Shown in pieces: positions 1-15,396 of a DNA stretch of 55,494 bases. The notes beneath the pieces are model-generated. The model was given only the letters and a program-made list of their open reading frames with translations, had not been told where the DNA came from and did no database searches. A program made the translations under genes and the position numbers. Each line of letters begins with the position of its first letter. The stretch's first letter is position 1. Origin of the DNA: Neophaeotheca triangularis (Eukaryota); NCBI GenBank assembly GCA_054600435.1, contig BAAIJX010000001.1, positions 1,178,001-1,233,494 of the forward strand, in the 5' to 3' direction.

Positions 1-3000
1 TCCTCGACAACACTCTCCTGCCTCTTCTTCACTTTCTCAGCCTTGACCCTCTTCGTAAAAGTCATCTTCCCACTCCCAGCATTCCCACTCCCCCCACTCC
101 CACTCAAAGCAGAAAAAGCATTCGAGCTCGCACCACCAGACCCAACCGCAGGCGCCCAGCGCGGCGCGGCCTTTTTGGCAGCGACGCGAGACCAGCCATC
201 GCCCGCGGCAGCGCTGTCGGATTCGCGGCGCAAGACGTTGAGAGAAGCGTCGGTGGTGCAGAGTTGGAGCGAGCCGTAGCCTTTGCCCGCGATCGCGGTG
301 GCGAGCGGCTGGCGCAAAGCGTGCAGAGCTTGCTGCAGGTCCACGGCGTTTAGAGAGCGGGTGAGGGCTTTGAGGACGACTTCTTCGCTGGGGAGGAATT
401 CGGGGTCGAAAGTTATTGCGAGTGAGGGCGGCATCAGCGGGGTGAGGACTGAGCGCAGTTCGTCCACGGTAAGTCCGAAGCGCGGGGAGCTGATTAGAAA
501 GCCGTTGTAGGGGGCGCCGACTTCGTTGCTGGGGTTGGCCTTGGAGGGGCCTGCGCCTTCCGAGTCGGAGACGTTGGCCGAGGAGTTGAGGGCGGAGCGC
601 TGAGCTTGGCGGATGCGGAGGCTTTCGGCCAGAGTCTTGTTGGGCGCTGCGACGAAACGCGGCGTTTTCCAGATCATGGCGTGGCGGTGTGGTTCCGGAT
701 CCATGCTTTCCGAGTCGAAGCCAAAGTCTTCGGCTAGGTGGTGGATGAAGGCACGCTGGGCGGCTTTCATGGGTGCGAAGCGGAGACGTTTTTCGTCGTC
801 CGAAGTAGCGAAGACGCGGAATTCGCGTTCTTGGGTTTGGCACCATTTGACGTGCTCGGCGAAGAGGTTGATGGTGTCGGCTGAGTAGGGGATGTGGTCG
901 CCGCCTTCGACACGGCTGGATTGGTCGATGTTGAGGGCGATTGCTAGCTTTCTGTTCCGTTCCAGACGAGCGCACTCTTCGTTGCAGGCGAGAGACTTGC
1001 CGTTGTTGCCTTCAGAGGCCTTCGAAGCCAGACACTTGGCCTCCTGCTTTTGCGCTTGGCATGGACAAGTGATGAAGATCTTAGACTGGCAAGGCAGATC
1101 CTCCTTGCAGGGGTATGGAGAATGGCAAGGCGCGTTGTCGGGATGACCGCAGACCTTTTTGAACTTCCCGCAAGGCTGGGTACATGGCTTGCCTCCAGCG
1201 TCTTCGCACTCACCAGGTCGATGACACAGCTTTTGGCAAAAGTGAGTGCCGCAAGAGAGTTTCGCTCCACATGTTTGCCCGCAGAGTACATTCTGTAGCC
1301 AGCATTGCTGATTCTTCAACGTCTTCTTGCCACAAGCACAGCGCTTTTCCACAAGGAACGGACAATTCGGGCAAGCTTCGTCATCTTGATGACAGTGGTG
1401 CGGAACCTGAGGATGGCCGCAAGCCTTGGGTCGATTGCACGGGTGTCTGCATGGAGGTGGTTTGGTGCCGCAAGGGAGAGGAGGCTGCAAAACGGTGCGC
1501 CCACAATGGCACCCAATCTCCTCGAAGACAGCTTCTCGGCAAGTCGGGCATGGGCCTTTGTGGCAGAGCTCGGTACAAGTGTGAGTTCCGCAACGCAACA
1601 AGCGCCCGCATTCACGAGTGCAAATGTGCTCGGCTTCAAAGTCGTTGTCCAAAGTCCGCGGTGCCGCACTGAGGGGTTTTTGCTTTCGCTTTGTGCTCTG
1701 TCTGTGGATGGCTTTACGTTCGCCGGTGCAGCAGCGTTCTTCGCAAGCATGACGGCCACAGCTGAGATTTGCTCGGCAAATACGCATGCATTGTGGTGCT
1801 TCGTCAATGCCTTGATGGCAGACCGTTTTCGAAGAAGTCCTGCCGCATCGACAGCCAATCTCGGTGATTTGGAGGCATGGCGGGCACTCACCCTGGTGAC
1901 AGACTCGTGGGCATTGATGGCCGCAAGGTAAGAGAGACGCACACGGCTCATTGCAGATGGGTATCGGGTCGGAACAGCTCGTCCTCGGTTCGGAGGTAAC
2001 GTTGGTGAGCGGAGTCTTACCACACGGACACGTGGTTACAAGATCTGGTGACCTCGGGCAGTGTGCTGGCTCGGCATCTTGAGGATGACATGATTTCTCG
2101 CATCGGTGTTCGCCACAATCAAAAGCCCGGTCACATGCCTGTGGGCACTCGAAAAGGCCCGTCCAGCTTTCAGTCGTTGAAGTACCGTTTTCGCCAGTAT
2201 GCGTTTGACTGCTCTCCAGTTCATCCCCTCGATCGCAGCACAATATCTCCTTCTCAGTCTGCCCGCAGTAACATCTCGCAGGTACCCTGGTCTCGCAAGC
2301 ACCACACAGCCCTTCATGGCAAGATCGATCGCAGGCGTGTTCACCGCACGGCAGTAGCTCCTCGCAAAGCTCACCACAACTCCACCCAGAAACATAATCG
2401 GTCTCTGAACATCGTTTGGTGACCTCGTGCTTACCGCAGAAGCAGACTTGAGTAGGGCCCATATGGGAACACGGTGGACAAGGTCCGGCGTGACAGGTAA
2501 GCTGGCAGGGATGTGGACATCTGCGCGCCCTCTCTTTCCCGCAGGTATTACCACACGAATGTGGCGGCAGACCGGCAAGCGATCTGGGCTCGGTATCCTT
2601 TCCACACCAGCAAGTGTAGGTCTTAGGCTGTATGTCTTGTGGTAAGTTACAGCCAGGGCACCGCCATTGGCGACCTGGTGGCGCTCCTCCGTCTTGGCCG
2701 TCGTGGCGAGCAGCAGCGGAGCCTTCGTTGGTCGACCACTTCTTGATGCATGTCAGGTGGAAGACTGTCCAGCAGTCGTGACAAGACCACACTTTGGAGT
2801 TTCGTTGAACCTCACTCGTGCAAATTGGGCATTCGTAGTACCCGTTGTCAATGTCTTCGTGTGTTCTGGTGGCGATGTCTGCGGCTTGCGATTTCGACGC
2901 TCTTCGTTTTTGATTGCGGGGTTGTTTGGGTTTTGGTTGCGCTCGAGGGCCGTTTGTTGTCTGCTGGGATTGGCCCGGCACGAAAGACGGCGCATCCGCT

Positions 3001-3380
3001 TGTAGGCCATTGACCAAGGGAGTTGGAGTTCCATTGTTGGTCTCGGCGACCTGAGTTAGACGTCCACCAAATTGCCTCCCGTCAGCGGTCCGTCGTTCTG
3101 ATGCTTTGCCGCCTCGGCCTCTACGATTCCTTCCGCCACGACTTGAAGAGGGCCCCGTTGGCACTTCTCCGTTGTTTTCGCCGTTTGCCGCTGGTGCCGC
3201 TGCCGGTGAAGTTGCTGATGCCGCAGGTGCCACTGAAGCTGGTCTCAAAGCCAATGAAGCGTCGCCAGCAGCACCACCCCTGCCCCGCGCTCTCCTCGGT
3301 GCACGTTTTCGACCGCCTCGAGAAGGTTGGTTTGTGCCATTTTGCTGAGCGGCGGCTGCCGGGGGAGGATGTGCCTCCAT
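1..3380 (-). CDS. FAP1: NF-X1-type zinc finger / R3H protein (FAP1, shuttle craft-like); 3' end lies outside the window
   Basis: ATG at 3380 (MEAHPPPAAAAQQNG...) is in the same frame as the R3H motif RLRFAPMKAAQRAFIHHLAEDFGFDSESMDPEPHRH (~675-790) and as the codons at the left edge (...KKRQESVVE). Many Cys/His NF-X1-type repeats lie between. It is absent from the ORF track, consistent with its stop codon lying beyond base 1. Confidence 0.9.
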   Translation of the reverse strand, partial: MEAHPPPAAAAQQNGTNQPSRGGRKRAPRRARGRGGAAGDASLALRPASVAPAASATSPAAAPAANGENNGEVPTGPSSSRGGRNRRGRGGKASERRTADGRQFGGRLTQVAETNNGTPTPLVNGLQADAPSFVPGQSQQTTNGPRAQPKPKQPRNQKRRASKSQAADIATRTHEDIDNGYYECPICTSEVQRNSKVWSCHDCWTVFHLTCIKKWSTNEGSAAARHDGQDGGAPPGRQWRCPGCNLPQDIQPKTYTCWCGKDTEPRSLAGLPPHSCGNTCGKERARRCPHPCQLTCHAGPCPPCSHMGPTQVCFCGKHEVTKRCSETDYVSGWSCGELCEELLPCGEHACDRSCHEGLCGACETRVPARCYCGQTEKEILCCDRGDELESSQTHTGENGTSTTESWTGLFECPQACDRAFDCGEHRCEKSCHPQDAEPAHCPRSPDLVTTCPCGKTPLTNVTSEPRTSCSDPIPICNEPCASLLPCGHQCPRVCHQGECPPCLQITEIGCRCGRTSSKTVCHQGIDEAPQCMRICRANLSCGRHACEERCCTGERKAIHRQSTKRKQKPLSAAPRTLDNDFEAEHICTRECGRLLRCGTHTCTELCHKGPCPTCREAVFEEIGCHCGRTVLQPPLPCGTKPPPCRHPCNRPKACGHPQVPHHCHQDDEACPNCPFLVEKRCACGKKTLKNQQCWLQNVLCGQTCGAKLSCGTHFCQKLCHRPGECEDAGGKPCTQPCGKFKKVCGHPDNAPCHSPYPCKEDLPCQSKIFITCPCQAQKQEAKCLASKASEGNNGKSLACNEECARLERNRKLAIALNIDQSSRVEGGDHIPYSADTINLFAEHVKWCQTQEREFRVFATSDDEKRLRFAPMKAAQRAFIHHLAEDFGFDSESMDPEPHRHAMIWKTPRFVAAPNKTLAESLRIRQAQRSALNSSANVSDSEGAGPSKANPSNEVGAPYNGFLISSPRFGLTVDELRSVLTPLMPPSLAITFDPEFLPSEEVVLKALTRSLNAVDLQQALHALRQPLATAIAGKGYGSLQLCTTDASLNVLRRESDSAAAGDGWSRVAAKKAAPRWAPAVGSGGASSNAFSALSGSGGSGNAGSGKMTFTKRVKAEKVKKRQESVVE

Positions 3381-3909
3381 GTGAAAGTTTTGCGAGTGAG
3401 AATACTAAGGTTTTGCTTCAAGTGAGGGCAACTTTTTTTCGGTAATGAGGCCCGTTAAGTCTAAGATATGCGACGATTGCAGAGTAAGAGTTGCAGAGGT
3501 GTGTCGAGTGATTTATCGGTGGCAATCCCTTTCAAAAGTCGTTTGTCCACAAACGAAGCCCCTTCCTCTCTGAGTAAGCAGAAAAGGGCGTTGGAATGGG
3601 CGTGGACGTCGATCGGTCAATGAGAAAGAGGAAAAGAATGCCTTGCGAGTAGAAGAAGGGATGAAGGGCTATCGATTTCGATTCCTCGACACCAGTAGTT
3701 AATGTGGTATCGCATGTGACCAAGGTCGCCTTCTTTTAGTTTTCATTCTCGTTGTCTCCTTGTGGCGATGTCGAACTTGATTACTCATGTCGATTCTCAG
3801 AGCTCGCTTTCGGGCTCGGAAGGAGCCGGCGCAAACTGTCGAGCTCCAAACAACTTCGCGACTTTTAAGCTACTCTCGTTCTTCTTCGCGTTCCATACCA
3901 ACCAATAAT

Positions 3910-5844
3910 ATGGCTGCCGAACAACAGGAAGCACCGCAAGGTGTCAAGCGACCCCATGATGAGGTGGATGGCACGACAGCCACGGACGAACCGAAACAGG
4001 ACGGCGGCGACGACCCCTCCTCAGATGACGACGACGACGACATGGGTCCTGCCCTCCCTTCAGCAGCAGAGGCAGCAGAGGCACCAAAGAAGAAGAAGAG
4101 AAGAAAGCTCGCCCACGAGAAACAATACGTCGCCGCGCTCCCTTCATCCTCACGCTACTTCAAGTCGCTCATGCACAAGGACCAACTCGCTTTTTGCACG
4201 TTTACGCCTCATACCGACTTTCTGATAACAAGCTCCATCGACGGCTACGTTAAATTCTGGAAAAAGGTCACGGGTGGTGTGGAGTTTGTCAAAGAATACA
4301 GGGCGCATGCGGGTGAGATTACGAGCGTCACGTGCAGTGCAGACGGGCAGAGCTTTGCTACGGCCGGTGCGGATGGGACGATAAAGCTCTTTGACGTTGC
4401 GACTTTCGATCTGCTCTCGATGCTGTCAGTTGAGGCGAGGAGTATCTGTTTTGTGCATGGGAAGCATTCTTCGATACCTATGTTGGCAGTGTCATCGATT
4501 TCAGACGGGACGGTCAAACTTTTTGATGGAAGAGGAGAGAAGGAGGAGCCGCAGCATACTTTAACCAAACTTCACCGGAAGCCCGTTCATCTCATGGCCT
4601 ACAATGCCGTTTTTGATTGCGTCATTTCTGCGGATGAATCTGGTATGGTGGAGTATTGGCAGCCATCGGGAAACTTCGAAAAGCCGGACGATGTCTTTGA
4701 GATGAAGAGCAGCACGTCCCTTTTCGAATTCAAAAAGGCCAAGTCAGTGCCATCAACAATATCCATCTCCCCCAACGGCAGGTATTTCGCCACCATGTCA
4801 TTTCCGGATCGAAAGATCCGCATCTTCGACTTCACGAGCGGCAAGCTTTACCGCACCTCCGACGAAAGCATCGATACCATCACCGAGATGCAGCAAGCCG
4901 GAACCCTCAGCAGCGATCCTCTCGACACCACCGACTTCACCCGCCGCATCAACATAGAAAAGGAGCTAGAGAACCCCATCACCCAACCCCGGATGAACAT
5001 CATCTGGGACGAAAGCGGCAACTTCGTCCTTTACGGCAGCATCCTAGGCGTCAAAGTCCTCAACCATGTCACCAACACCGTTATCCGTACGTACGGGCGA
5101 GAGGAGCCCTTCCGCCCACTCAACTTAACCCTCTACCAAGGCCAGCCCTCCAAAAAAGGCGTCGTAACCATCGATATGGCCGCCTCAGCCAACCCGCTCC
5201 TCCAAGAAGCCGAAGCCCGCGACACGATGCTCATAGCAACGGGCAATACCAAACCACGCTTTTACATGTACAGCAACGAAACACACATAACGAAAGACCG
5301 GGACATCCACAACGAAAAACCGACCACCAAGACTCCCAAAACCCCCGCCGACCTAGAAGCGGAAAAAGCCTCCCGGCTCCCGACGACAGCAACCCTGCAC
5401 ACGACCAAAGGCGACATCCACCTCCGCCTCTTCGCGTCCCAAACCCCCCTCACTGTCGAAAACTTCACCACCCACGCCCGCCAAAACTACTACAACACCC
5501 ACCTATTCCACCGCGTCATCCGCAAATTCATGATCCAAACCGGCGACCCTTTGGGCGATGGCACAGGCGGGGAATCCATCTGGGGCAAAGAATTCGCCGA
5601 CGAATTCCACCCGGACCTCAAACACGACAAGCCATATACCCTGTCCATGGCGAACGCCGGACCGGGTACAAATGCCAGTCAGTTTTTTATCACGACTGAG
5701 CGCGCGCCGTGGTTGGACGGGAAACATACGGTTTTTGGACGGGTTGTGAGGGGGATGGAGGTTGTGCATGCTATCGAGAATGTGAGGGTTGTCAAGGAGA
5801 GGCCAGCAGAGGATGTGAGGGTCGTTAGTATTAGTGTTGGGTAG
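3910..5844 (+). CDS. cyp15: WD40-repeat cyclophilin peptidyl-prolyl isomerase (PPWD1/Cyp15)
   Basis: N-terminal WD40 region (SLMHKDQLAFC..TDFLITSSIDGYVKFWKK) and C-terminal cyclophilin domain (FHRVIRKFMIQTGDPLGDGTGGESIWG, SMANAGPGTNASQFFITT, WLDGKHTVFGRV). The start is placed at the MAAEQQ ATG rather than 3787. Confidence 0.95.
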   Translation: MAAEQQEAPQGVKRPHDEVDGTTATDEPKQDGGDDPSSDDDDDDMGPALPSAAEAAEAPKKKKRRKLAHEKQYVAALPSSSRYFKSLMHKDQLAFCTFTPHTDFLITSSIDGYVKFWKKVTGGVEFVKEYRAHAGEITSVTCSADGQSFATAGADGTIKLFDVATFDLLSMLSVEARSICFVHGKHSSIPMLAVSSISDGTVKLFDGRGEKEEPQHTLTKLHRKPVHLMAYNAVFDCVISADESGMVEYWQPSGNFEKPDDVFEMKSSTSLFEFKKAKSVPSTISISPNGRYFATMSFPDRKIRIFDFTSGKLYRTSDESIDTITEMQQAGTLSSDPLDTTDFTRRINIEKELENPITQPRMNIIWDESGNFVLYGSILGVKVLNHVTNTVIRTYGREEPFRPLNLTLYQGQPSKKGVVTIDMAASANPLLQEAEARDTMLIATGNTKPRFYMYSNETHITKDRDIHNEKPTTKTPKTPADLEAEKASRLPTTATLHTTKGDIHLRLFASQTPLTVENFTTHARQNYYNTHLFHRVIRKFMIQTGDPLGDGTGGESIWGKEFADEFHPDLKHDKPYTLSMANAGPGTNASQFFITTERAPWLDGKHTVFGRVVRGMEVVHAIENVRVVKERPAEDVRVVSISVG

Positions 5845-6421
5845 GCGGTAGAGGAGAAGGGCGACTACCCGCTCGCTGCCTGGAAGCTTTGGTCTTGGTT
5901 CCAAAGACCAGGTCTGCATTCGGTTTCCTGCTTAGATGACAGCCTCGTTACAACTCCTCATTGGTCTCAAGATCGTCTCGTGGAACGAGGGGAGCTCGAG
6001 AGGGGTTGGGGCATGTGGAGTTGCTGCCATTAGGGTCAGGGTTTGGGATGGTTTTGACATCCCTCGAGGACGTTGGGCCTTGTTGCAGAAAAGCCGAACG
6101 GAGTGTGGTCGAACAGCGTAAAGAGATTGTCGAGATGGAAGAGGTTGAGTAGTGTCCGGGAGTCGAGCTAGTTGGCGTCTGCAGCTCTGGGACTTACGTC
6201 CAGCCGCCGAGACCACAAGATCAATAACACTTTCCAACGAACATGGTCCGGACACAACCGTACAGTCTGGTTCTGCCAAGTCGAAACACCAGTTGACCCC
6301 TTAAAAACACTTCTACCCAGAAATGACAGCGCAAAACGGTAACGCTCAAATGCTTTCCAAATTCCATGAATCATCATCGTCAAATCCCCCAAGTCGCACA
6401 AACTCGCTCGCAAGCGTAAAA

Positions 6422-8461
6422 CTAGGCCAGCCAGAACCAAACCTTCTCGACCCAATTCTTCGGCACCCTCGGCTGGTCCATCTCCTCCAACTCATCCATC
6501 TCCTTGATCCCTGTAGTAACATCCACGTCCTCGACTCTTCTCGCCAAAACCGGGCCTCCAGACTTCAAACTCCACACCTTGTGGCCGAGATAAAGAATGA
6601 CAAAGATCGGAAGGGTGATGTAAGCGGCCAAAAAGTCGGCGACGTTCCATTGCGAGGGGAAGAAGACTTGGAAACCGTTTGTCAGGGTCAGGAGGATGAG
6701 GAAGAAGAGGACGAAGTAGGTTGCGTAGGGTTGAAGGGGCGTGCGGAAGGGGAGGGTGTGCATGAGGTTGTTGTAGATCATGGCTTTGCGGAAGCGGAGG
6801 TAGGTGATGCAGACGACGATCCAGGCGATGAAGCCGGAGATGGTTGAGATGTTGGTGAACCAGGCGAAGACCTTTTGAGTACATGTTAGGTTTGGCTTCA
6901 AGGGGGTGGTAGGAAGGGTGGGATTGAAACGTACCTGCGCGCCGGAGTTGCTGACGTTCAAGAATGCCAGACAGCCGATCAGCCAGGTCGCTAGCACGGC
7001 AAAGTAGGGGACACCGTTTTTGGTCGTTTTGGTGAAGACTTTCGGGGCCTGCTTGTTCAGAGCCATGCTGTAAAGGACTCGAGAGCCAGAGTAGAGAAAG
7101 GCATTCCCGGCGGACCAAGCCGATGTCAGCACCGCCGCATTGATGACGTGGTTCAATCCGGAGATGCCTGCAAGCTGAATGCCAATAACGAAGGGAGAGG
7201 CACTAGCGTTGGAGGTGCCAGAGAGGAGACGCTCGTTGGTGCAAGGAACAATGACGCCGATGACTAGAGAGGCCAACCCGTAGAAGATGGCTGCACGAAG
7301 TACGATCAGCTGTGCTCGACGAATGACACCAGACAAAGAATGAGCTTACCCAAACGCCAAACGAAACGACGAGCCGCCTTTGGCACGTTGCGGCGAGGCG
7401 AAACCGTCTCACCAGCAGCCATAGCGATGAGCTCGGGCGATGTGATGTAGGCGAACCCTGCGCGGATTGTCGCTGTCCAGTACGCGAGGAAGCGACCTGT
7501 GTCACCAGGCGTCATGTAGGGCTTGAAAGCACCCCAATGGTCGTCGGTTGCACTCAGTGGCTCCCAGTAGCGGAATCCAAGACGGCCTTGATCCGGCCCT
7601 CCGCCGAAGAAGAGTACGATGCCCAGTATGATGAGACCGATAATGGTGATCAGCTAGATTATTGTCAGTGCACGAGCGAAGGAGCGGTTTGATTTGCCTC
7701 CATACCTTGATGCTGGCAAACCAGAATTCACTCTCCCCAAAGTATTCGACAGTTATGATGTTGAGTAGCAAGACGACAACAAGCACAATAGCAATCCAAA
7801 CTCCAGGGTTCACCGTGGCCTGCAGGAGGGTCAGTGATTGGTCCGATGGGATTGACAACAAGTCCCGCTCACCTCGCTAACCCAGTAGCCCATGATGATT
7901 GCGCCAGCCGTAGCTTCGGCCGCAACGAGAATGGCGTAAGCATACCTGTAGTACGTTAGCACGGTAAGCACGAAGAGCTCAATGGAGCAAGTCACTCTTA
8001 CCAATAATTCCAGCCATCTGCAAAAGCGAGTGAAGGCTCCACGTATCGGTTGACAAAATAAGGAACACTGATACCTCTCATGGGCAACAGAGTCACCATT
8101 TCCGCGAGAACGTTCATGATGTTCCAGACAATGATGAGCATGCTCATGTAACCCATGAACAGGGGCGCGGGGCCGACGGTCGCGAGAATCTGTCCAGAGC
8201 CAACGAATAGTCCGGTTCCTATGGCCCTGTAGCCGCATTGTGAGCTCCCGGCCGTACCACGCAGCACTGCTCTCCCATCACTTACCCTCCCAGAGCCAAG
8301 AATTGAATGTGTCGACTCTTCAGGCCTCGATGTAGCTGTTCGCTTGTCGAGAGCGAGACTTCACCGGGAGCAGAAGGGGCCGTGGCAAGACCATTGTTCT
8401 GCTCGGTGTCCCAGCCTTGACCGCCTTTCATCTCGATCGTGGCGTCGTCGTCGTAGCCCAT
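6422..8461 (-). CDS. Amino acid permease (APC/YAT family, proline permease-like), multi-exon
   Basis: Exon 1 reads MGYDDDATIEMK...LHRGLKSRHIQFLALGG, spliced (intron 8227-8285) to AIGTGLFVGSG. Later segments include FGESEFWFASIK, SPELIAMAAGE, ASASPFVIGI and SAWSAGNAFLYSGSRVLY. At least six short introns. Confidence 0.92.
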
Positions 8462-9555
8462 GATGTCGGAGGGTGTCGAGTTTTATGTGTTCGAACAGGG
8501 ACGTTGGCGAAGGAGACAGAGGCGTGAGGTCGACGAGATTGACTTGCCTCCGGATTTCCAAAAACCTGGAGTGCGAGAAACTATAGGGTAATACTCCAGA
8601 ACGTACCCCGGAGAGCGAGAACGCTAACAATAAATCTCACGGTTGCAATGATGGAAGTCGTCGCGGAGTGGTCATACCACGACCAATTCTACCAGCGTGG
8701 GCGATGTCTTGCTGCTGTCGACGGCTACCGATGGTCTTGGCCGACCGCGAACGGACGACGAGGTTAGGGTGTGATAGGAATCGCCGTTGGTGGGGGATGG
8801 AAGTGGATGCGGTTAAGTAACAGTAAGCTTCTTCAAGGCTTTCGATTCGTCCAGCGGGAAGCAAGCCTTTTGGCCAGCCGCGTGCTTGAGCCAGGCTTCT
8901 TTTCGGCCCGTCTTCCAAAGCCTAAATGTAGATAAACACCGCCCCGGCGTTTGCCCTTGAGGAAGTCCGATGCGGTTTCATGCGCACGTTGCGTCTGGAA
9001 GGCTTGTAGAACGTTCATGGTGGTCGCATACCGTCGGCATGCGTTGTAGGGCTGTCATCAACAAGAGCACCCCCACCACAATCATTTGAAACAGCGTCGT
9101 AGTCTGTTATCTCGTCCTACGACAAAGGTTTTGCATTGGAATCAATCAACCAACGTGGAAGCCGTGGTTGTCCTGTCCGGCTGCTGGATGACACTTCCAC
9201 CGTACTGTACTTGAACGCATGCTTGCAAGCTCTTCCAGTTGCTGTACGCAGACGAAGAGCTGGGCACCGCATCCGAGGATGAGAACACCACGGTAACGGG
9301 GTAGTTACGGATGAGAAATCGGCCGAGATTGAGAAAGCTTTGATAAGGAAGAAAGAATACGGACAACTCAAAGCAAGCAGAAAAGGCCGGCAATTGACAA
9401 GAAAGCAGAATATAACAAAATAGCCAATGCTTTGCAACGGTTCCCCGAAAAAGAATGGCCGTGCCAAAACAGCAACCGACCCGTCGAGTCAAAAGGTCGT
9501 AGCGAAGCAGTGTAGAAGATGAAGATTCATCAAGCAGCTAAAGAGTTGAAACCCC

Positions 9556-12500
9556 TCATTGGGATCCACGCAAGGCGTCCCTTTCCGACATACTCATCTC
9601 ATGCCTTTTCATACCCCTTGCTAATTTCGGCGCATGTTTTTCGAGGGCTGACAGTGTCGCTGTAGCCTGCGACTTCCAGTGCCCAGAGTTGGTCACACTA
9701 GGCATGTAGACTATGGGCGGCCGATTCCACGAAGCAGCAACATCACGTCTACGGCGGTATTCGCGGCCTTCAGGGTCGCACAGGTCGCTTGTGTCGAGCT
9801 GAGCGGGTCTGCCGCTGGCGGCATTGAGTTGGCGTTCTCTTGCAGCTTCCGTTGCGTTGGCCCGCCACAAACGCTTGAGGTCTTCGCTGTCGAATAGACT
9901 GTCTTGGGCGGACGTCAATAATTCCTTTGCTGCGTTTACTCGTTCGATAACTTCTCGCTCTGGAAATTCCTGTTGCTTTCGCATGTTGACCAAGCGCTCC
10001 TGGTGGGTGACTGTCCGTTGGCCGAGAGACCACACGACGTGGTCCGGCTGTCCTGAAAGCACGGCGAAAAGGTTCCATGCGAGAGGAATACTGCGACCAA
10101 CATGACGGACATACAAAAGAGGGATCCCATCTGGAGTTCCTGATGGGGCGCCAAAGCCTTCTGGTGGAGAGGTGGTGCGGGCCTGGTCGGCTCTACTCTT
10201 CAGAAACTCTATGAGAGCCTCGATGTGAGTGGCTCCCGCTCTGACTATCGGGTCTTCGTATTGCTCGAGATTGGGAAGAGGATTCGTGACCTTGGCGCAT
10301 GTCGTAGGCACCCAAAACTTGCGTGGATCATATAGGTCTTTGAGACCGGAAAGCGGGTCCTGCTCGCCGAGAGTCTGCTTACGATAGGGATCCTCTTGTT
10401 CCATGCACGAAACTACGAGGGACTCGGCACGAACGTTTCCATCAGGGGGGTTATACATGGCCGCTTTTCGCGTAACCTGGACCCGCAAATTGTGCTCCCT
10501 ACAGATTGGAGTTAGAACATGACTATCTTTAATTTCTGAGACTTTCGCGCTTACCAAGGTCTCAGTCTCTCTGTTTTCCAGAAGACTTTGTTGGTGGAGT
10601 AACGTTCTGCTTCACGACCGGCATAGGTTCGGGTCGGGAAGCAGCGCGGATTGTCGTCGACAAGAGGTACATGATACTGCAAGTTCGAACGACTGTTGAA
10701 ATCTGGATCTTCTACCACACCTAGGGGTGACGGTCGCTGGCAACAGAGGCGAAGGGGCGAGAGTTGAGGCCGTGACTGGTAAGCCTCATAGGCATCCAGT
10801 GCTGTTCCCACGAGCCTAATGTCGTCAGAAGCTATCATCTGTTCGAAGACCAGGTTTTGGCCGGCCACTTCGCAACGTTAGCTCAAAAATTAAGCACCGA
10901 CGAAAAGCAACACTCACCATCGCCAATGAGATAAGCCATCGCATGACTGTCCTGCCCTATGTCGGGCCTCCCCAGGTTCCGGTAAAAGTGGAGCTTGCCA
11001 CGAGGGTGATTCCGCGCTCTGTCCTTCATGAAATCCAAGATGCGGTAGAGGTGATCAGAGCCAAGCATGGCTTGGAGAAGGTGGCCATAGTTGAAACCAT
11101 AGCGGTTCTCGTGCCATTCCTGCAGCGGTACGTTTTTGCCATGAAGCCGGCACATGTGGTTTAGCAGAGCCGCCAAATCTGCGAGAATGGTCAGGGGGAG
11201 TTCATGAAGTACGGGGAGGCACAGCAAGACCCACCTATGTTACCCAGATGACAGGAGCAATGTATCCCCCTTTCGTTGGCGCCCACCTTGTGAAGATCAC
11301 ATTGTCGTTCTTGATGAGAAAATTTGAGCTCCTCGGGGCGCGAGTATGTTTCGAAGAAAGGGCTTTTCAGTCGAAACTGGGGATAAATTACACAGGATCT
11401 TGTAGTCCCATAAATCCAGTGGCGGTACGGTTGTCTTTTGTCTTTCTGGTAGAGATGGGCGATGGTGTCGTCCAGAACTGAAATGTCTTGGGCCGGATTC
11501 CACCTGTGCAATACGTCAAGTCAGCCATTATTTCGCCGCACTCATCGGCCGGATCAGTTGTAAGATGCGTACCATAACTTGAGAAACGACGGATCAAATA
11601 TGGTCGCTTTGAAAAACTTTTCGAATTCCGGTACCGTCGCTTTAGTGGGGTTTTCAAGCATGTGCAGTACGTTGATAACCAGGAAGAAGTGTTTGCCGAC
11701 GGCGAATGTAAGCACGCTGCAAAGGTGTTCCAACCCGCCGTTGTCGACGGTCCTTGTCGTGTCTGTAGCGTCTCTCGGCAGTGTCGCGAATTCCGCATCG
11801 ACTGAACAGTGCGGCAACATCTCGCCCCATTTGCATTCTTCGGTGACTCTGACTTTTCGGTTCTGGTATGGAGCACGTTCGACGGCACGTTTGAGAAACC
11901 CCAATGCGGCACCCAGGTCTTCAGCATCGCTTACAGTGATGACGAAAGTATCCAACCGGTCAAGTGGATCGCCCCTCGGAAGTTGGAATCGATCGGGGAT
12001 CGAAAGGTATTCGTTCAAACAACACTCCACGCCGTCACCTGTCACTCGCCATGATATACGTTTGAACTGTGGCCCCTTTCGTTCAGAACCAGCGGCCCGG
12101 TGCTGCTCCTGTAAGCGTACATGATTGGATAGCCACACCACGAGCTCCTTGCCTGATTGATCGGGGAGCAAAGTCGCAAAATTGTTCAGCCCGGGAAATC
12201 TCAACCGCAAGTGCTGTGGTAGTGAGTCCTGTAACCAGTGCAACACCACGGAGCACACACCATACGTTGGAGATCCCTCGGAAACGGCATCCCTTTGCTC
12301 GAAAGGTGGGCTGTCGCGCATATAGACGTCGAGTCGAATCTTGAGTGCATTAGCGACGACCCAGTGAAGCTCTCTCGTGTAAAAGTCTGGAAAATCGAGA
12401 TTGGTGAAGAGCGGCCGTATTGTCGAACTATTCTCGCGACGACGGTACTCTGAATGCAAGGGATGGTCAGGCAGTCTTGCTCGAATGGCGAACGCGATGA

Positions 12501-12706
12501 CTGCATCGCGAATTTCGAGATAGTGTACGTGAGAGCCGATAAGCTGCCGAGCTAAGGCTCTTGGAAGCAAGGTCAGTAGGCGTATTCGTAGTGTTTAAGC
12601 TCAAGTGAGTATACCTGTAAAGACTATAGCCATCAGGCTTCCGGGGACAGAACCCGCCGCCAGGTTCGGCTGCAAACTCGTAGTCGGTAAGATGAAGCTT
12701 TGACAT
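9556..12706 (-). CDS. Uncharacterised ~954-aa protein: N-terminal inactive OTU-like domain + DEDDy 3'-5' exonuclease + unknown C-terminal region
   Basis: Six exons: 12706-12615, 12559-11573, 11503-11235, 11178-10918, 10867-10555, 10498-9556 (2865 nt, one open frame, all GT-AG introns). Motifs: PDGYSLYRALARQLIG (OTU-like), SVDAEF (ExoI), LKLWWNPAQD (ExoII), GNIDL, AYLIGDV (ExoIII). The start codon is less certain than the rest of the model. Confidence 0.75.
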
Positions 12707-13846
12707 TGGCAGGTGTCGCTTTCGACTTGTCGATGTAAGTAGTTTTCGTGGAATTTACCAATGTTGAAGGAAGACCAAGTACGAGCAATGCAGGATAGAG
12801 TGCTTTGGAGAATGACCAAGGAGCTCAACGATCAATTGTCGCGGGATACAACTTACAATGCCGCAGCATCATTTTGAAAGAGTTGGCCGTTTCCGGCGGG
12901 ATGCTTTGTGTTCAGATGTCGGTCTCGGACAAAGAACGATAAGCACCTGAACATCGAGTGAAGGTACTCTCGAACACCAGAGCCCATTGTGCAGCACTTC
13001 CGGTCGAGCTTTGAGGTTTAGAAAGCATTGTTGGCACTGTTGTTGGGGACACCAGAGGCGTAGGGTCAGCCAGGCATTGTGTCGAGGCAGAATTCGCACT
13101 GTTCGACTTGATTGATAATGTCGCTCAAGCAACATTGCATGCAATCTTCTCGCTTATCACTGCTCTATGGCTGGTAATCTTGGTGGTCTTCGCCCCGCTC
13201 ACATGCGCTCGCATGGCGAATCGGCTTGCTGTTGGAATTTGAAGCCTGGTACACGGTTTTGGCGTTCTGCAACATACAGAAATCCGAGAGAACCACAGAG
13301 GGTGGAAAGGGGCACTGACAACCGCCTTACGTAGCGTGCAACCCCGTTCAAACCAACACGTCTGCCTTCACACGAGTCTGTTGAAGACTGCAGGTGATGT
13401 TGGGCTCGCCGGCTTGACACCTTCCCTTCGGAGAGACGGGCGCTTTTGTGGCATGGTTGAGCGTAGAAGCCGACATCTTACATTCTGTGACTTTCTCCAT
13501 TGCGACAGTAGTTTGATGAACGGGGTGGTGTTGCTGACGAAAAGATGCCCTGGTAATAAGTCCTAGGTGCGAGGGTGCCTTCCACTCGAAAAGGAAGTGA
13601 TGTCGTCCCCAGTCGTCCAGCCCAGCGTCGATTGGCCGGATGCGGAAGTACCTCATTAGGTATCTAGTGGGGCATCTTGGCATAACCTCTCGACGTCAGC
13701 TCCCAATGTCAAGCTGCATATGCGATGCGCCCAGCGATGGATCCTTTGGCAGACCTCGAGAGCCTTACCTGAAGTTCCCATGATGCCCTTGCACGACCAC
13801 GTAGCAATCTGCCTCCTGCTTTTGCAAGGGGATCAGAGAAACGAAG

Positions 13847-15396
13847 ATGGCCTTGGCAAACCTCCTTGAAGGCGTCAACACCTCGACCATACCAACTGTG
13901 GCATTGCTCGCGCTTGCATCGCTACTCTCCTATCGAGCCTTCCTCCACCCACTACGCGACGTTCCAGGACCCTTCATTTGTCGCCTGACTTCTCTCTGGA
14001 TCTGGTATCGCTCGTTCATCGGGGACGAATGCAGCCTCATCGTCAAGCTACACGATCAGTATGGGCCCTTTGTCCGCATAGGACCTGATGAGGTCGTAAT
14101 CTCCGACGGAGCGGCCTTACAACCCGTCTACAATGACAACGGAGGCTTCCTCAAAGCTCCGTGCTACTCGAATTTCGATTCCGAAGGACACTCGACGGTT
14201 TTCTCGACCACGGACCCAAAACACCGAAGCGCGAGGAGCAAGGCTGTGGCGTCCCTGTTCAGCATGAGCAATGTTCGAGCAAAAATACACCTAATAGAGG
14301 GGTCAGTGGACAGAATGGTAGAAGGGCTGAAGAGTGAGAAAGAAGGTAGCCTGAAGGCTTCACAAGAGCGGGGCAAGCCTGTCGCCGTGAACTTGTTGAA
14401 TCTTACAAGGAGCCTGGCCATAGACGCAACGTCTTCATTCCTGTTCGGCGTGCAATATGACGGTACCGATGGGAACTTGGATCGTTTGAACGTCAGTGCA
14501 TACATCGATTTCATAGTCACACTCGGACGAACCTTCTTCACCACCCCGCATTGGGTCCCAATGGTTGTTGATATGGTTTTGACGAAGCTTTACCCCAACA
14601 CAGAGTTCGAAAGCAGCGCACAGAAGGTCGACAGCTTCGCAGACAGCCTGGTCAAGAATTCTGGAAAAGACGATGCTACCTATCAGGCTCGCTTGCTCAA
14701 AGCCGGCATATCTCCGCATGAGACCAAGGTTCAGCTGCAAGACCTCATATTCGCAGGTACTGATAATACCGGCACCAATCTCGCTTCTTTGTGCTGGCGT
14801 CTGACTAAACACCCGGACATGTAAGCTGGTGAAGTCGCGCTTCAGCATCGACATACACTGACTTCAGAACCAGGTACAAACGTCTTCGCGCCGAGCTGGA
14901 AGAAGCCGAGTCGAAGAACAGCAGCTCAGCCAACTTCCATGACCTACCCTACCTCAACGCCATTGTTCGCGAAGGTCTTCGGACCAGCATGGCGAACCCC
15001 ACCCGCCTGCCACGCGTTGTTCCACAAGGAGGTTGGACCTTCACCTCCCACGCCAACAACCGCACCTACCATCTACCAGGCGGATGCCAAGTTGGATTGC
15101 AACTTCGGACCCTCCACTTCAACCCGGTCGTCTTTCCAGACCCTTTTACTTTCAAACCCGAGCGGTGGCTGGGAGACGTCTCTCATGCTATGCAGCGGGA
15201 TGCCATACCCTTTGGGATGGGCTCGAGACAGTGCATTGCGCGTAATCTAGCGCTGACGGAGTTGTTGCTTGCCGTCAGGGCTATTGCAAGGGAAGGAGTG
15301 CTGGAAGGGGCAAAAGCGGTAGGTGACAGGATTGAGATGAAAGAATGGTTTAGTAGCCAGGTAGTGGGAAGGAAGGTGGAGTTGGTCTGGAGTTGA
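13847..15396 (+). CDS. Cytochrome P450 monooxygenase
   Basis: N-terminal TM anchor plus HPLRDVPGP, I-helix AGTDNT, EGLR (ExxR), PERW and heme motif FGMGSRQCIA. One intron at 14821-14873. Confidence 0.95.

Follow-up and report, generated by a model that had tools for sequence, protein, structure and literature searches.

The window, by which we mean the whole stretch of 55,494 nt that was analysed, contains on its minus strand a gene whose predicted product combines an OTU-fold domain, a DEDDy 3'-5' exonuclease domain and a long C-terminal region peculiar to its family (Table 1). Judged by its sequence, the locus is one intact, predicted single-copy gene, no second copy having been found within the window. 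The spliced frame of 2865 nt has no internal stops, and introns 1 to 5 measure 55, 69, 56, 50 and 56 nt, so that our splice model reproduces the five canonical introns and the 954-aa frame of the original prediction. It had also been claimed that key motifs are completed only by splicing, which we found for three of them: intron 1 interrupts PDGYSLYR/ALARQLIG, intron 2 interrupts KLW/WNPAQD and intron 4 interrupts YLIGD/V. The homolog P0001 reads straight through at the positions matching all five splice junctions. A public protein of 497 aa, P0043, is letter-for-letter identical to aa 458-954 of the spliced model, and introns 4 and 5 have therefore been independently called alike. P0043 is the sole public gene call that we met for this locus and, since it covers these residues alone, automated annotation conceals the architecture.

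Could the OTU and exonuclease parts belong to two separate genes? The stop-to-stop ORF 11554..12594, which contains exon 2, extends without a break over the first OTU helix, ExoI and all that lies between. Exon 2 alone is thus one ORF across both domains, the fusion is independent of any splice, and the two-gene model was ruled out. A mobile element was also ruled out, by the lack of direct or inverted repeats in 7300-14000 around the gene and of a second copy in the window. The genes flanking the OTU-exonuclease gene are ordinary.

Table 1. Positions of the gene, its exons, predicted domains and key residues within the window
Feature	Position	Strand	Residues and remarks
Whole gene	9556..12706	-	6 exons, 5 introns (all GT..AG), product of 954 aa (splice model and translation)
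Start codon (ATG)	12706-12704	-
Stop codon	9558-9556	-
Exon 1	12706-12615	-	aa 1-31, ends in phase 2; D25-G26-Y27-S28-L29-Y30 corresponds to the OTU 'DGNC' loop
Exon 2	12559-11573	-	aa 31-360; remaining OTU fold, linker strands, ExoI
Exon 3	11503-11235	-
Exon 4	11178-10918	-
Exon 5	10867-10555	-
Exon 6	10498-9556	-
OTU-fold domain	12082..12706 (incl. intron 1)	-	~aa 1-190; fold predicted for relatives, not for the window protein
Residue at Cys position		-	Ser28, exon 1; column counts, 66 members
Residue at His position	12181-12183	-	Asn157; aligned to members keeping H[FY]DSL
DEDDy 3'-5' exonuclease domain (predicted)	10797..12081 (incl. introns 2-4)	-	~aa 191-560; long ExoII-ExoIII insert
ExoI	11797-11799; 11791-11793	-	D285; E287; exon 2, residue mapping
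ExoII	11485-11487 (D366)	-	N362/D366; residue mapping
CHCC motif (putative zinc site)	11251..11301	-	C428-x2-H431-x10-C442-x-C444; exon 3, inside ExoII-ExoIII insert
ExoIII	10931-10933; 10919-10921	-	Y532; D536; residue mapping
Family-specific C-terminal region	9559..10796 (incl. intron 5)	-	~aa 561-954, about 390 aa

An unannotated protein family

The product belongs to a family of Pezizomycotina proteins which has no annotation and shows a three-part architecture. At E<=1e-3 the family comprises 133 representatives, and at the stricter E<=1e-30 it comprises 53; many relatives, 930-1200 aa long, are collinear over their full length. The window protein aligns end to end with P0001 (38% identity, 903 columns, E 1.7e-162) and shares about 37-40% identity with its best full-length relatives; the E-values for homology of the window gene, 1e-57 to 1e-162, show that the similarity is not due to chance. 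Two paralogs of Zasmidium cellare share just 35% identity. The named members, which come from Dothideomycetes and lichen fungi, are all 'hypothetical' proteins.

Pfam gave no match for the window's five exon ORFs (E<=1) or for P0001 (E<=10), and the sole match among 40 members (E<=0.01) was a sub-threshold one to Maelstrom in P0028. The PDB, searched by sequence with P0001 and with a 47-member profile, returned nothing at E<=10, and the ESM Atlas returned clusters at 0.75-0.84 only, which are leads rather than assignments. Word searches of open-access papers found neither the architecture nor the Zymoseptoria locus tag described. Both folds are known; it is the OTU-DEDDy exonuclease fusion that appears to be absent from the family libraries and literature searched, and the claim that the architecture is undescribed stands, as far as Pfam families and these papers go. 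A structure search of BFVD was headed by baculovirus VP80 (E 1e-4), with no virus protein evident that has both domains.

The N-terminal domain

The folds were predicted for two relatives, P0001 (880 residues) and P0075 (a 182-aa model of the N-terminal domain), and transferred to the window protein by 37-49% identity. At its N-terminus the window protein has 37% identity with P0075 (180 columns, E 1e-21) and likewise 37% with P0001, and the exonuclease part is 49% identical to that of P0001. When the P0075 model (pLDDT 91.6) was submitted to Foldseek, nine matches were obtained at E<=1e-3, every one listed being an OTU protein, with OTUD1 the best (E 3.7e-5). VIA, which is independent of Foldseek and covers 48,161 chains, aligned 125 of 141 residues of OTUD3 at Z 10.7 (rmsd 3.5), followed by nairovirus vOTUs (about 10), OTUD1 (10.0) and yeast Otu2 (9.3); ranks 1-33 were OTU-type and the following chain fell to Z 3.1. 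OTU chains were also recovered with the full-length P0001 model. On these models the N-terminal domain is an OTU fold, as had been predicted, and this in spite of the Pfam OTU profile matching none of 47 members at E<=10.

The catalytic residues of this fold have been replaced. Not one of 66 members has Cys in the Cys column, which is occupied by Ser in 40, Thr in 16, Ala in 4, Asn in 3, and Trp, Arg and Met in one each. His is kept in the His column by 11 of 62 members; most of the window's clade has Arg, Lys, Thr, Asn or Gln there. This bears out the Ser and Asn that had been proposed at the two catalytic positions. Since Ser28 replaces the nucleophilic Cys and Asn157 the general-base His, the work of a canonical cysteine deubiquitinase is impossible for the window protein. 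The flanking signature D-G-x-S-L-Y-R is retained (D in 51, G in 56, Y in 64 and R in 58 of 66 members; Asp25 in the window). Ten members that have Ser or Thr in the Cys column also retain the His, eight of them being exactly Asp-Ser-His, including the lichen-fungus proteins P0024 (Piccolia ochrophora) and P0025 (Candelina mexicana).

The central and C-terminal regions

The P0001 model reached a pLDDT of 91.0 and a pTM of 0.91 over all 880 residues. Foldseek with the whole model found nothing at E<=1e-3, and the domains were resolved only by VIA and by folding the N-terminal domain separately. In VIA the best matches of the P0001 model were At5g06450 (Z 14.4, 193 of 200 residues aligned, rmsd 3.0), RICE1 (14.3), Nibbler (13.7-13.8) and the WRN exonuclease (13.5-13.6), and further down Egalitarian (13.1), RNase D (12.2) and EXD1 (11.9). 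The order of the top matches recurred in a second search that does not depend on Foldseek. The top exonuclease matches (Z 13.5-14.4) had 176-203 residues aligned of targets 186-226 residues long, with an rmsd of 2.6-3.5. As modelled, the central domain has the fold of DEDDy exonucleases such as WRN, RNase D and Nibbler, which agrees with the DnaQ-like exonuclease proposed for the middle of the protein. Sequence methods gave little here: Pfam PF01612 (DNA_pol_A_exo1) matched 3 of 47 members below threshold (best E 0.057), and when the family profile was aligned with E. coli RNase D by hhalign, nothing significant resulted (probability 0.5%).

All the DEDDy residues, D285, E287, D366, Y532 and D536, are retained, as claimed. 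Their columns are 92-97% conserved (D 59/62, E 60/62, D 59/64, Y 67/70, D 66/69), and the complete D-E-D-Y-D set is present in 31 of the 36 members that cover all sites, the window included, with at least one residue lost in the other five. In the family tree the set persists over very long branches. The P0001 model places ExoI in strand 294-304, ExoII at the opening of helix 382-395 and ExoIII in helix 546-568; these positions fit a DEDDy fold at the level of residue ranges, which is what the structure tools gave, rather than of superposed sites.

ExoII and ExoIII are about 165 residues apart in this family, and the insert between them carries a near-invariant CHCC motif (C in 61/61, H in 62/62, C in 59/61 and C in 60/61 members), which probably forms a structural zinc site. 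Neither this motif nor the Asp-Ser-His relatives had been part of the original prediction. The C-terminal region has conserved segments, among them P.VRAG, PPGFG and DPEGREYRR in the family consensus. It had no Pfam match and only unnamed ESM Atlas clusters (0.77-0.84), and the best 50 VIA matches listed for the whole P0001 model were all exonucleases or OTUs.

Discussion

We think it probable that this intact gene encodes a dead OTU fold joined to an active DEDDy exonuclease with a likely zinc site and a family-specific C-terminal region. The observation behind the original prediction is confirmed, and its interpretation is partly supported, being upheld for the domain reading. The protein would need metal for its 3'->5' exonuclease activity and would trim or degrade the 3' ends of single strands, perhaps of RNA in preference to DNA. 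The WRN exonuclease, which we take to be a DNA enzyme, scores on a par with RNA enzymes in the structure search, so the type of substrate is not separable by Z. The dead OTU domain may be a permanent part of this particle without catalytic work of its own. It could hold the nuclease in place or gate it, in the manner of the PAN2 pseudo-USP, or else bind a partner or a tag resembling ubiquitin. That all parts form one rigid particle is suggested by the pTM of the model, from which alone we read it. If the nuclease is active, it would be a new 3'-5' exonuclease in fungal nucleic-acid metabolism.

Is it possible that the dead OTU domain is a receptor for ubiquitin or a ubiquitin-like protein, which brings the exonuclease to modified targets in silencing, antiviral or anti-transposon defence? 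The OTU fold has been retained, with high model confidence, and the signature around the lost Cys is still conserved. The family is patchy, diverges fast and contains deep paralogs, which may be the pattern common in conflict genes, and its nearest nuclease neighbours are Nibbler and RICE1, both of which presumably work in small-RNA pathways. However, the ordinary neighbour genes and the absence of flanking repeats or mobile-element marks do not favour such a role. Moreover, in PAN2 the dead domain is a packing partner of the nuclease and not a reader of ubiquitin (PMC10590902), and putting Cys back into Ser-type OTUs gave no activity (PMC4654579), suggesting that ubiquitin-handling features can also be lost. 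We regard a receptor of this kind as possible but doubtful.

The fold by itself is no proof of nuclease activity, because among its structural neighbours Egalitarian and EXD1 are nuclease-dead RNA binders. Could the domain then be an RNA- or DNA-binding adaptor without hydrolysis, like these two proteins and animal Maelstrom? Both are among the best structural matches, the MAEL domains of animals are inactive binders on this fold (PMC4408791), and in five of 36 family members the catalytic set is short of at least one residue. However, the inactive MAEL example has lost its DEDD residues (PMC4408791), whereas the window and most of the family are complete in them at highly conserved columns despite the divergence of the family, and we find an adaptor very unlikely.

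There is a slighter chance still that the gene descends, as a domesticated remnant without the polymerase part, from a protein-primed family-B DNA polymerase of a polinton-like element or a plasmid. The ExoII motif N-x3-D also occurs in polymerase-associated exonucleases, and the ESM Atlas clusters closest by features bear DNA_pol_B_2 (0.76-0.77, leads only). Eukaryotic protein-primed polymerases share the order of an OTU followed by a DEDDy exonuclease (PMC11071308). The structure search nevertheless separates the two groups, with the WRN, Nibbler and At5g06450 scores given above against 7.5-8.2 for family-B exonuclease domains (phi29 8.2, Pol epsilon 8.1-8.2, Pol II 7.8, RB69 7.6), and at E<=10 none of the 47 members matched Pfam DNA_pol_B_2, against three for DNA_pol_A_exo1. 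An IMG/VR scan with two family patterns from a 14-sequence alignment yielded 29 pattern matches, none of them confirmed as a relative by tblastn, and the gene has neither terminal repeats nor a nearby second copy.

Lastly, it is scarcely credible that the OTU domain is alive as a hydrolase with a Ser or Thr nucleophile: 56 of 66 members have such a residue in place of the Cys, and ten of them pair it with His, eight as exact Asp-Ser-His, but the window has Asn157 at the His position, most of its clade also lacks the His, and the Ser-type OTUs tested so far were inactive, with no serine-protease deubiquitinase known to the authors (PMC4654579).

The reading of a dead OTU fold with an active exonuclease is the one we keep. 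If it is true, a dead deubiquitinase fold would have come to lie within a DEDD nuclease a second time, independently, and comparison with PAN2 could explain what the pairing is used for. A bolder version, which we consider improbable, is that this is a second pseudo-deubiquitinase-exonuclease, assembled independently in fungi on the PAN2 principle by joining an OTU fold to a WRN-type DEDDy nuclease whose insert bears zinc, that its Asp-Ser-His members, those of lichen-forming fungi for instance, are the first OTU hydrolases with a serine nucleophile, and that removal of a ubiquitin-like or peptide tag is coupled to 3' degradation of nucleic acid in a fast-evolving pathway of conflict or RNA surveillance. 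The Asp-Ser-His relatives offer a natural test of a serine nucleophile in the OTU fold.

Comparison with known systems

With WRN, RNase D, Nibbler and At5g06450/RICE1 the predicted nuclease has in common the fold over nearly the whole target domain, the D-x-E of ExoI, the Asp of ExoII and the Y-x3-D of ExoIII. It differs from them in its sub-threshold Pfam match, the insert bearing the CHCC motif, the fusion to an OTU domain and the C-terminal region of about 390 aa without an assigned fold.

The partners of Otu-type OTU domains are, we assume, Tudor or other modules. Drosophila Otu and CG3251, OTUD4-like pseudo-deubiquitinases, carry Ser in place of the catalytic OTU Cys (PMC4654579), so the precedent cited in the original prediction is in print. 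They share with our family the OTU fold and the motif D-G-x-[nucleophile]-L-[FY]-R with Ser as nucleophile, whereas here Pfam does not match the OTU (47 members, E<=10), the His has been lost as well and the partner is a nuclease.

A DEDD-type fold with a C-x2-H...C metal motif is also found in the MAEL domain and the arenavirus nucleoprotein exonuclease. In these a structural zinc is bound by ECHC, and an amoeba MAEL protein in which the two motif sets coexist is active as an exoribonuclease (PMC4408791). In our family, by contrast, the CHCC motif lies about 90 residues ahead of ExoIII, not directly ahead of it, and ExoIII is of the Y type. The Maelstrom match of P0028 was the only one (E 0.0055; 16.9 bits, the cut-off being 22), and no MAEL or arenavirus chains were among the best 50 structural matches listed. 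Eukaryotic protein-primed PolB of polintons and related elements, arranged as TP-vOTU-Exo-palm (PMC11071308), resembles our protein in having an OTU-like domain directly upstream of a DEDDy exonuclease in one polypeptide. It differs in that we found no polymerase part by Pfam (0/47), that the nuclease modelled here is WRN/RNase D-like and that ours is a cellular gene with introns.

PAN2 is, to our knowledge, the only textbook case of a dead deubiquitinase combined with a DEDD nuclease. Of the known systems it comes closest in architecture to our protein, and the original prediction did not mention it. Its nuclease presumably belongs to the DEDDh branch, whereas that of the window is DEDDy, and its dead domain is a USP fold, here an OTU fold. 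The nuclease domain of N. crassa Pan2 matched the P0001 model at Z 8.0, far below the WRN type, and the match was through the nuclease domain only. Pfam showed no WD40 in the window's exon ORFs or P0001, and no PAN3-binding region was seen. The resemblance to PAN2 is an analogy, probably convergent, rather than family membership. Still, the logic of the two proteins is the same, a dead deubiquitinase fold and a DEDD-superfamily exonuclease on one chain. In PAN2 (USP52), the catalytic subunit of the PAN2-PAN3 deadenylase, the inactive deubiquitinase fold is packed on the exonuclease of the same chain (PMC10590902), and by analogy this precedent suggests that the OTU domain may serve as a scaffold rather than in ubiquitin recruitment.

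Results

The original prediction had ORF fragments spliced into one 954-residue protein, and we were able to confirm it; the gene lies on the minus strand. The ORF fragments, read from stop to stop in three frames, join into a frame of 2865 nt (954 aa) with no internal stop, with all motifs in place and with a relative bridging every junction. The splice sites were picked by homology from alternative GT/AG pairs, which allow 96 open combinations. P0001, an 880-residue relative, continues uninterrupted across all the junctions of the window gene, and the spliced product aligns with it at 38% identity over 903 columns (E 1.7e-162). The public protein P0043 (497 aa) is identical, letter for letter, to the last 497 residues of the model, so introns 4 and 5 had been called alike independently. 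P0043 starts at an internal methionine, residue 458 of the spliced model, and contains neither the OTU part nor ExoI and ExoII, two of the three catalytic motifs of the exonuclease; because of this internal start, automated annotation missed all three. It had also been predicted that the motifs exist only after splicing, and this is borne out for PDGYSLYR/ALARQ, KLW/WNPAQD and YLIGD/V, where the slash marks the junction. By itself, exon 2 reads as one ORF that takes in the first OTU helix, ExoI and everything between them, and the two domains therefore share a reading frame regardless of splicing.

The window is an ordinary piece of fungal chromosome, which also encodes a gamma-glutamyltranspeptidase and ECM29. 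Nothing among the neighbours (window 3-8300 and 13805-15396) hints at a gene cluster or mobile element, no direct or inverted repeats were found in 7300-14000, and there is no second copy of the gene within the window.

Features of the locus and its neighbours, in window positions
Feature	Position	Strand	Remark
NF-X1/R3H zinc-finger protein	3-3404	-	neighbour
Cyclophilin-WD40 protein	3781-5844	+	neighbour
Amino-acid permease	from 6422	-	neighbour
Exons 1 to 6	12706-12615, 12559-11573, 11503-11235, 11178-10918, 10867-10555, 10498-9556	-	spliced model
Introns 1 to 5		-	55, 69, 56, 50, 56 nt; all GT..AG
C-x2-H-x10-C-x-C (C428, H431, C442, C444)	11251-11301	-	exon 3; lies within the long insert that separates ExoII from ExoIII
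P0043	9559-11155	-	sole public protein identical to the locus
Cytochrome P450, intron-split	13805-15396	+	neighbour

The N-terminus was tested on its own by folding P0075, a 182-residue relative which covers only this domain and is 37% identical to the window protein there (pLDDT 91.6, pTM 0.85). Foldseek returned nine matches at E<=1e-3, all of them OTU among the matches listed (OTUD1 with E 3.7e-5, OTUD3 with TM 0.66). When the model was compared by VIA with 48,161 representatives, ranks 1-33 were OTU or OTU-like proteases by title, rank 19 being titled only 'ubiquitin protease'. The top scores belonged to OTUD3 (Z 10.7; 125/141 aligned, rmsd 3.5), nairovirus vOTUs (about 10), OTUD1 (10.0) and yeast Otu2 (9.3). 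The first chain after rank 33 stood at Z 3.1, and it is this gap that makes the OTU assignment clear.

Residues were counted in 138 sequences (137 proteins and the window product) aligned to the family profile, each column over the sequences covering it. At the position of the catalytic cysteine no Cys occurs in 66 sequences; serine (40) and threonine (16) prevail, followed by Ala (4), Asn (3) and one each of Trp, Arg and Met, and the window protein has Ser28. The histidine is kept by 11 of 62 members, the remainder having Arg (19), Thr (7), Lys (6) or other residues; Asn157 occupies this position in the window protein. The OTU signature columns are otherwise well preserved (D 51/66, D25 in the window; G 56/66, Y 64/66 and R 58/66, all three kept in the window). 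The 11 histidines lie in an H-[FY]-D-S-L strand, among others in P0024, P0025, P0034, P0028 and P0003. Ten of these members combine the histidine with a serine or threonine in place of the cysteine, eight of them as exactly Asp-Ser-His, and the named ones among the eight, P0024 and P0025, come from lichen-forming fungi. A midpoint-rooted FastTree, limited to 40 sequences that have 450 or more aligned positions (the other 98 being excluded) and uncertain in its root, groups the window protein with P0009 inside a large group mostly without the histidine, and most of the His-keepers are scattered over the other half.

The nuclease part was examined in an AlphaFold2 model of P0001 (47-sequence alignment; mean pLDDT 91.0, pTM 0.91), which is 49% identical to the window protein in this region. 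With the whole model Foldseek gave no match at E<=1e-3, and the matches listed were nearly all DEDDy-type exonucleases, exonuclease parts of family-A polymerases or OTU domains. By VIA-align the central part came closest to At5g06450 (Z 14.4; 193/200 residues aligned, rmsd 3.0), RICE1 (14.3), Nibbler (13.8), WRN exonuclease (13.6), Egalitarian (13.1) and T. brucei RNase D (12.5). A search of 48,161 chains independent of Foldseek gave the identical order at the top, with Rrp6 (about 11) and family-A polymerase exonucleases (9-12) below, then Pop2 (8.6), N. crassa Pan2 (8.0), PARN (7.9) and family-B polymerase exonucleases (7.5-8.2). Since this ranking places the WRN/RNase D/Nibbler kind on top, we assign the nuclease to it. 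Compared with the viral structures of BFVD, the P0001 model best matched the capsid-associated VP80/P87 proteins of baculoviruses (E 1e-4 to 4e-3, about 200 columns), which rank above viral OTUs and giant-virus exonucleases.

The motif columns are strongly conserved in ExoI (D 59/62, window D285; E 60/62, window E287), ExoII (N 57/66, window N362; D 59/64, window D366) and ExoIII (Y 67/70, window Y532; D 66/69, window D536). All five catalytic residues are complete in 31 of the 36 covering sequences, the exceptions being P0003, P0013, P0016, P0026 and P0078. The best-conserved feature of the family is one that the original prediction did not mention, the CHCC motif (61/61, 62/62, 59/61 and 60/61), which is probably a structural zinc site. 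It recalls the ECHC zinc motif which an excerpt of PMC4408791 describes in the MAEL and Lassa nucleoprotein exonucleases, but differs in lying about 90 residues before ExoIII.

Searched with HMMER, 1.84 billion representatives yielded 133 proteins at E<=1e-3, of which 53 reached E<=1e-30. Many have 930-1200 aa and match along their full length; numerous others are fragments, and some named relatives look shortened too, such as a 798-aa Zymoseptoria protein without the ExoI columns. Named members, all "hypothetical" or "uncharacterized" and none with a precomputed Pfam domain, come from Dothideomycetes (Oleoguttula mirabilis, Zasmidium cellare, Cryomyces minteri, Cryomyces antarcticus, Zymoseptoria tritici) and lichen-forming fungi (Piccolia ochrophora, Candelina mexicana, Candelaria pacifica). 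The best full-length relatives of the window protein are only about 37-40% identical to it, and P0136 and P0014, both full-length and both named Zasmidium cellare, share 35%; the family is thus divergent with deep paralogs, and the sequences of this pair point to old paralogs and rapid divergence. Pfam had no match for five exon ORFs of the window gene (E<=1) or for P0001 (E<=10). A scan of 47 members (E<=10) matched DNA_pol_A_exo1 in three of them (best E 0.057), Maelstrom in one (E 0.0055), and OTU and DNA_pol_B_2 in none. In PDB, neither sequence searches nor a family profile produced a match.

Discussion

One gene thus carries two folds, as seen in the models of its relatives; the OTU triad is dead, and the DEDDy set is complete and conserved. 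The domain reading of the original prediction is supported on both sides, by the P0075 model and the counts for an OTU fold without Cys and His, and by the P0001 model and the counts for a DEDDy nuclease. We propose that the window protein works as a 3'-5' exonuclease of the two-metal type. RNA would be a somewhat likelier substrate than DNA, because most of the nearest structural neighbours act on RNA; WRN exonuclease, which scores equally high, is a DNA enzyme. Could the nuclease fold instead be a catalytically dead adaptor, like Egalitarian, EXD1 and animal Maelstrom? The conserved catalytic set makes this quite improbable, and in an excerpt of PMC4408791 a DEDD fold with a zinc motif accompanies activity in an amoeba MAEL protein and the Lassa nucleoprotein.

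What, then, does the OTU domain do? Judged by its residues, it is unable to use canonical Cys-His chemistry. Ser-for-Cys OTUs exist which are inactive even with the cysteine restored, according to a portion of PMC4654579, and the question of such OTUs is testable at this locus. The original prediction suggested that the dead OTU is a ubiquitin receptor, which we consider less likely, though it is the best placed of the other readings. The pTM of 0.91 across the 880 residues of P0001 suggests that the OTU domain may be a fixed part of one particle, not a tethered module. An origin from polinton-type protein-primed polymerases, whose order is TP-vOTU-Exo-palm in a section of PMC11071308, and to which weak ESM Atlas leads also point, is very improbable given the Z scores (7.5-8.2 for family-B exonucleases versus 13.5-14.4 for the WRN/Nibbler/At5g06450 group), the lack of a Pfam DNA_pol_B_2 match in all 47 members and an empty IMG/VR scan.

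We came across no family model of an OTU-DEDDy fusion, and word searches of an open-access library, one of them for the Zymoseptoria locus tag, turned up no paper on it. While the folds are familiar, their combination is new, and so are the CHCC insert and the C-terminal region. By analogy, the best precedent for a dead OTU joined to a nuclease is PAN2, a deadenylase subunit. Its inactivity has been questioned, according to part of a review (PMC10919355); an excerpt of PMC10590902 describes its inactive USP domain as making extensive contacts to its own DEDD nuclease domain. Although the known range of the family is narrow and the biology is a proposal, what the locus encodes looks like a real architecture that had so far stayed hidden and that has a parallel in PAN2.
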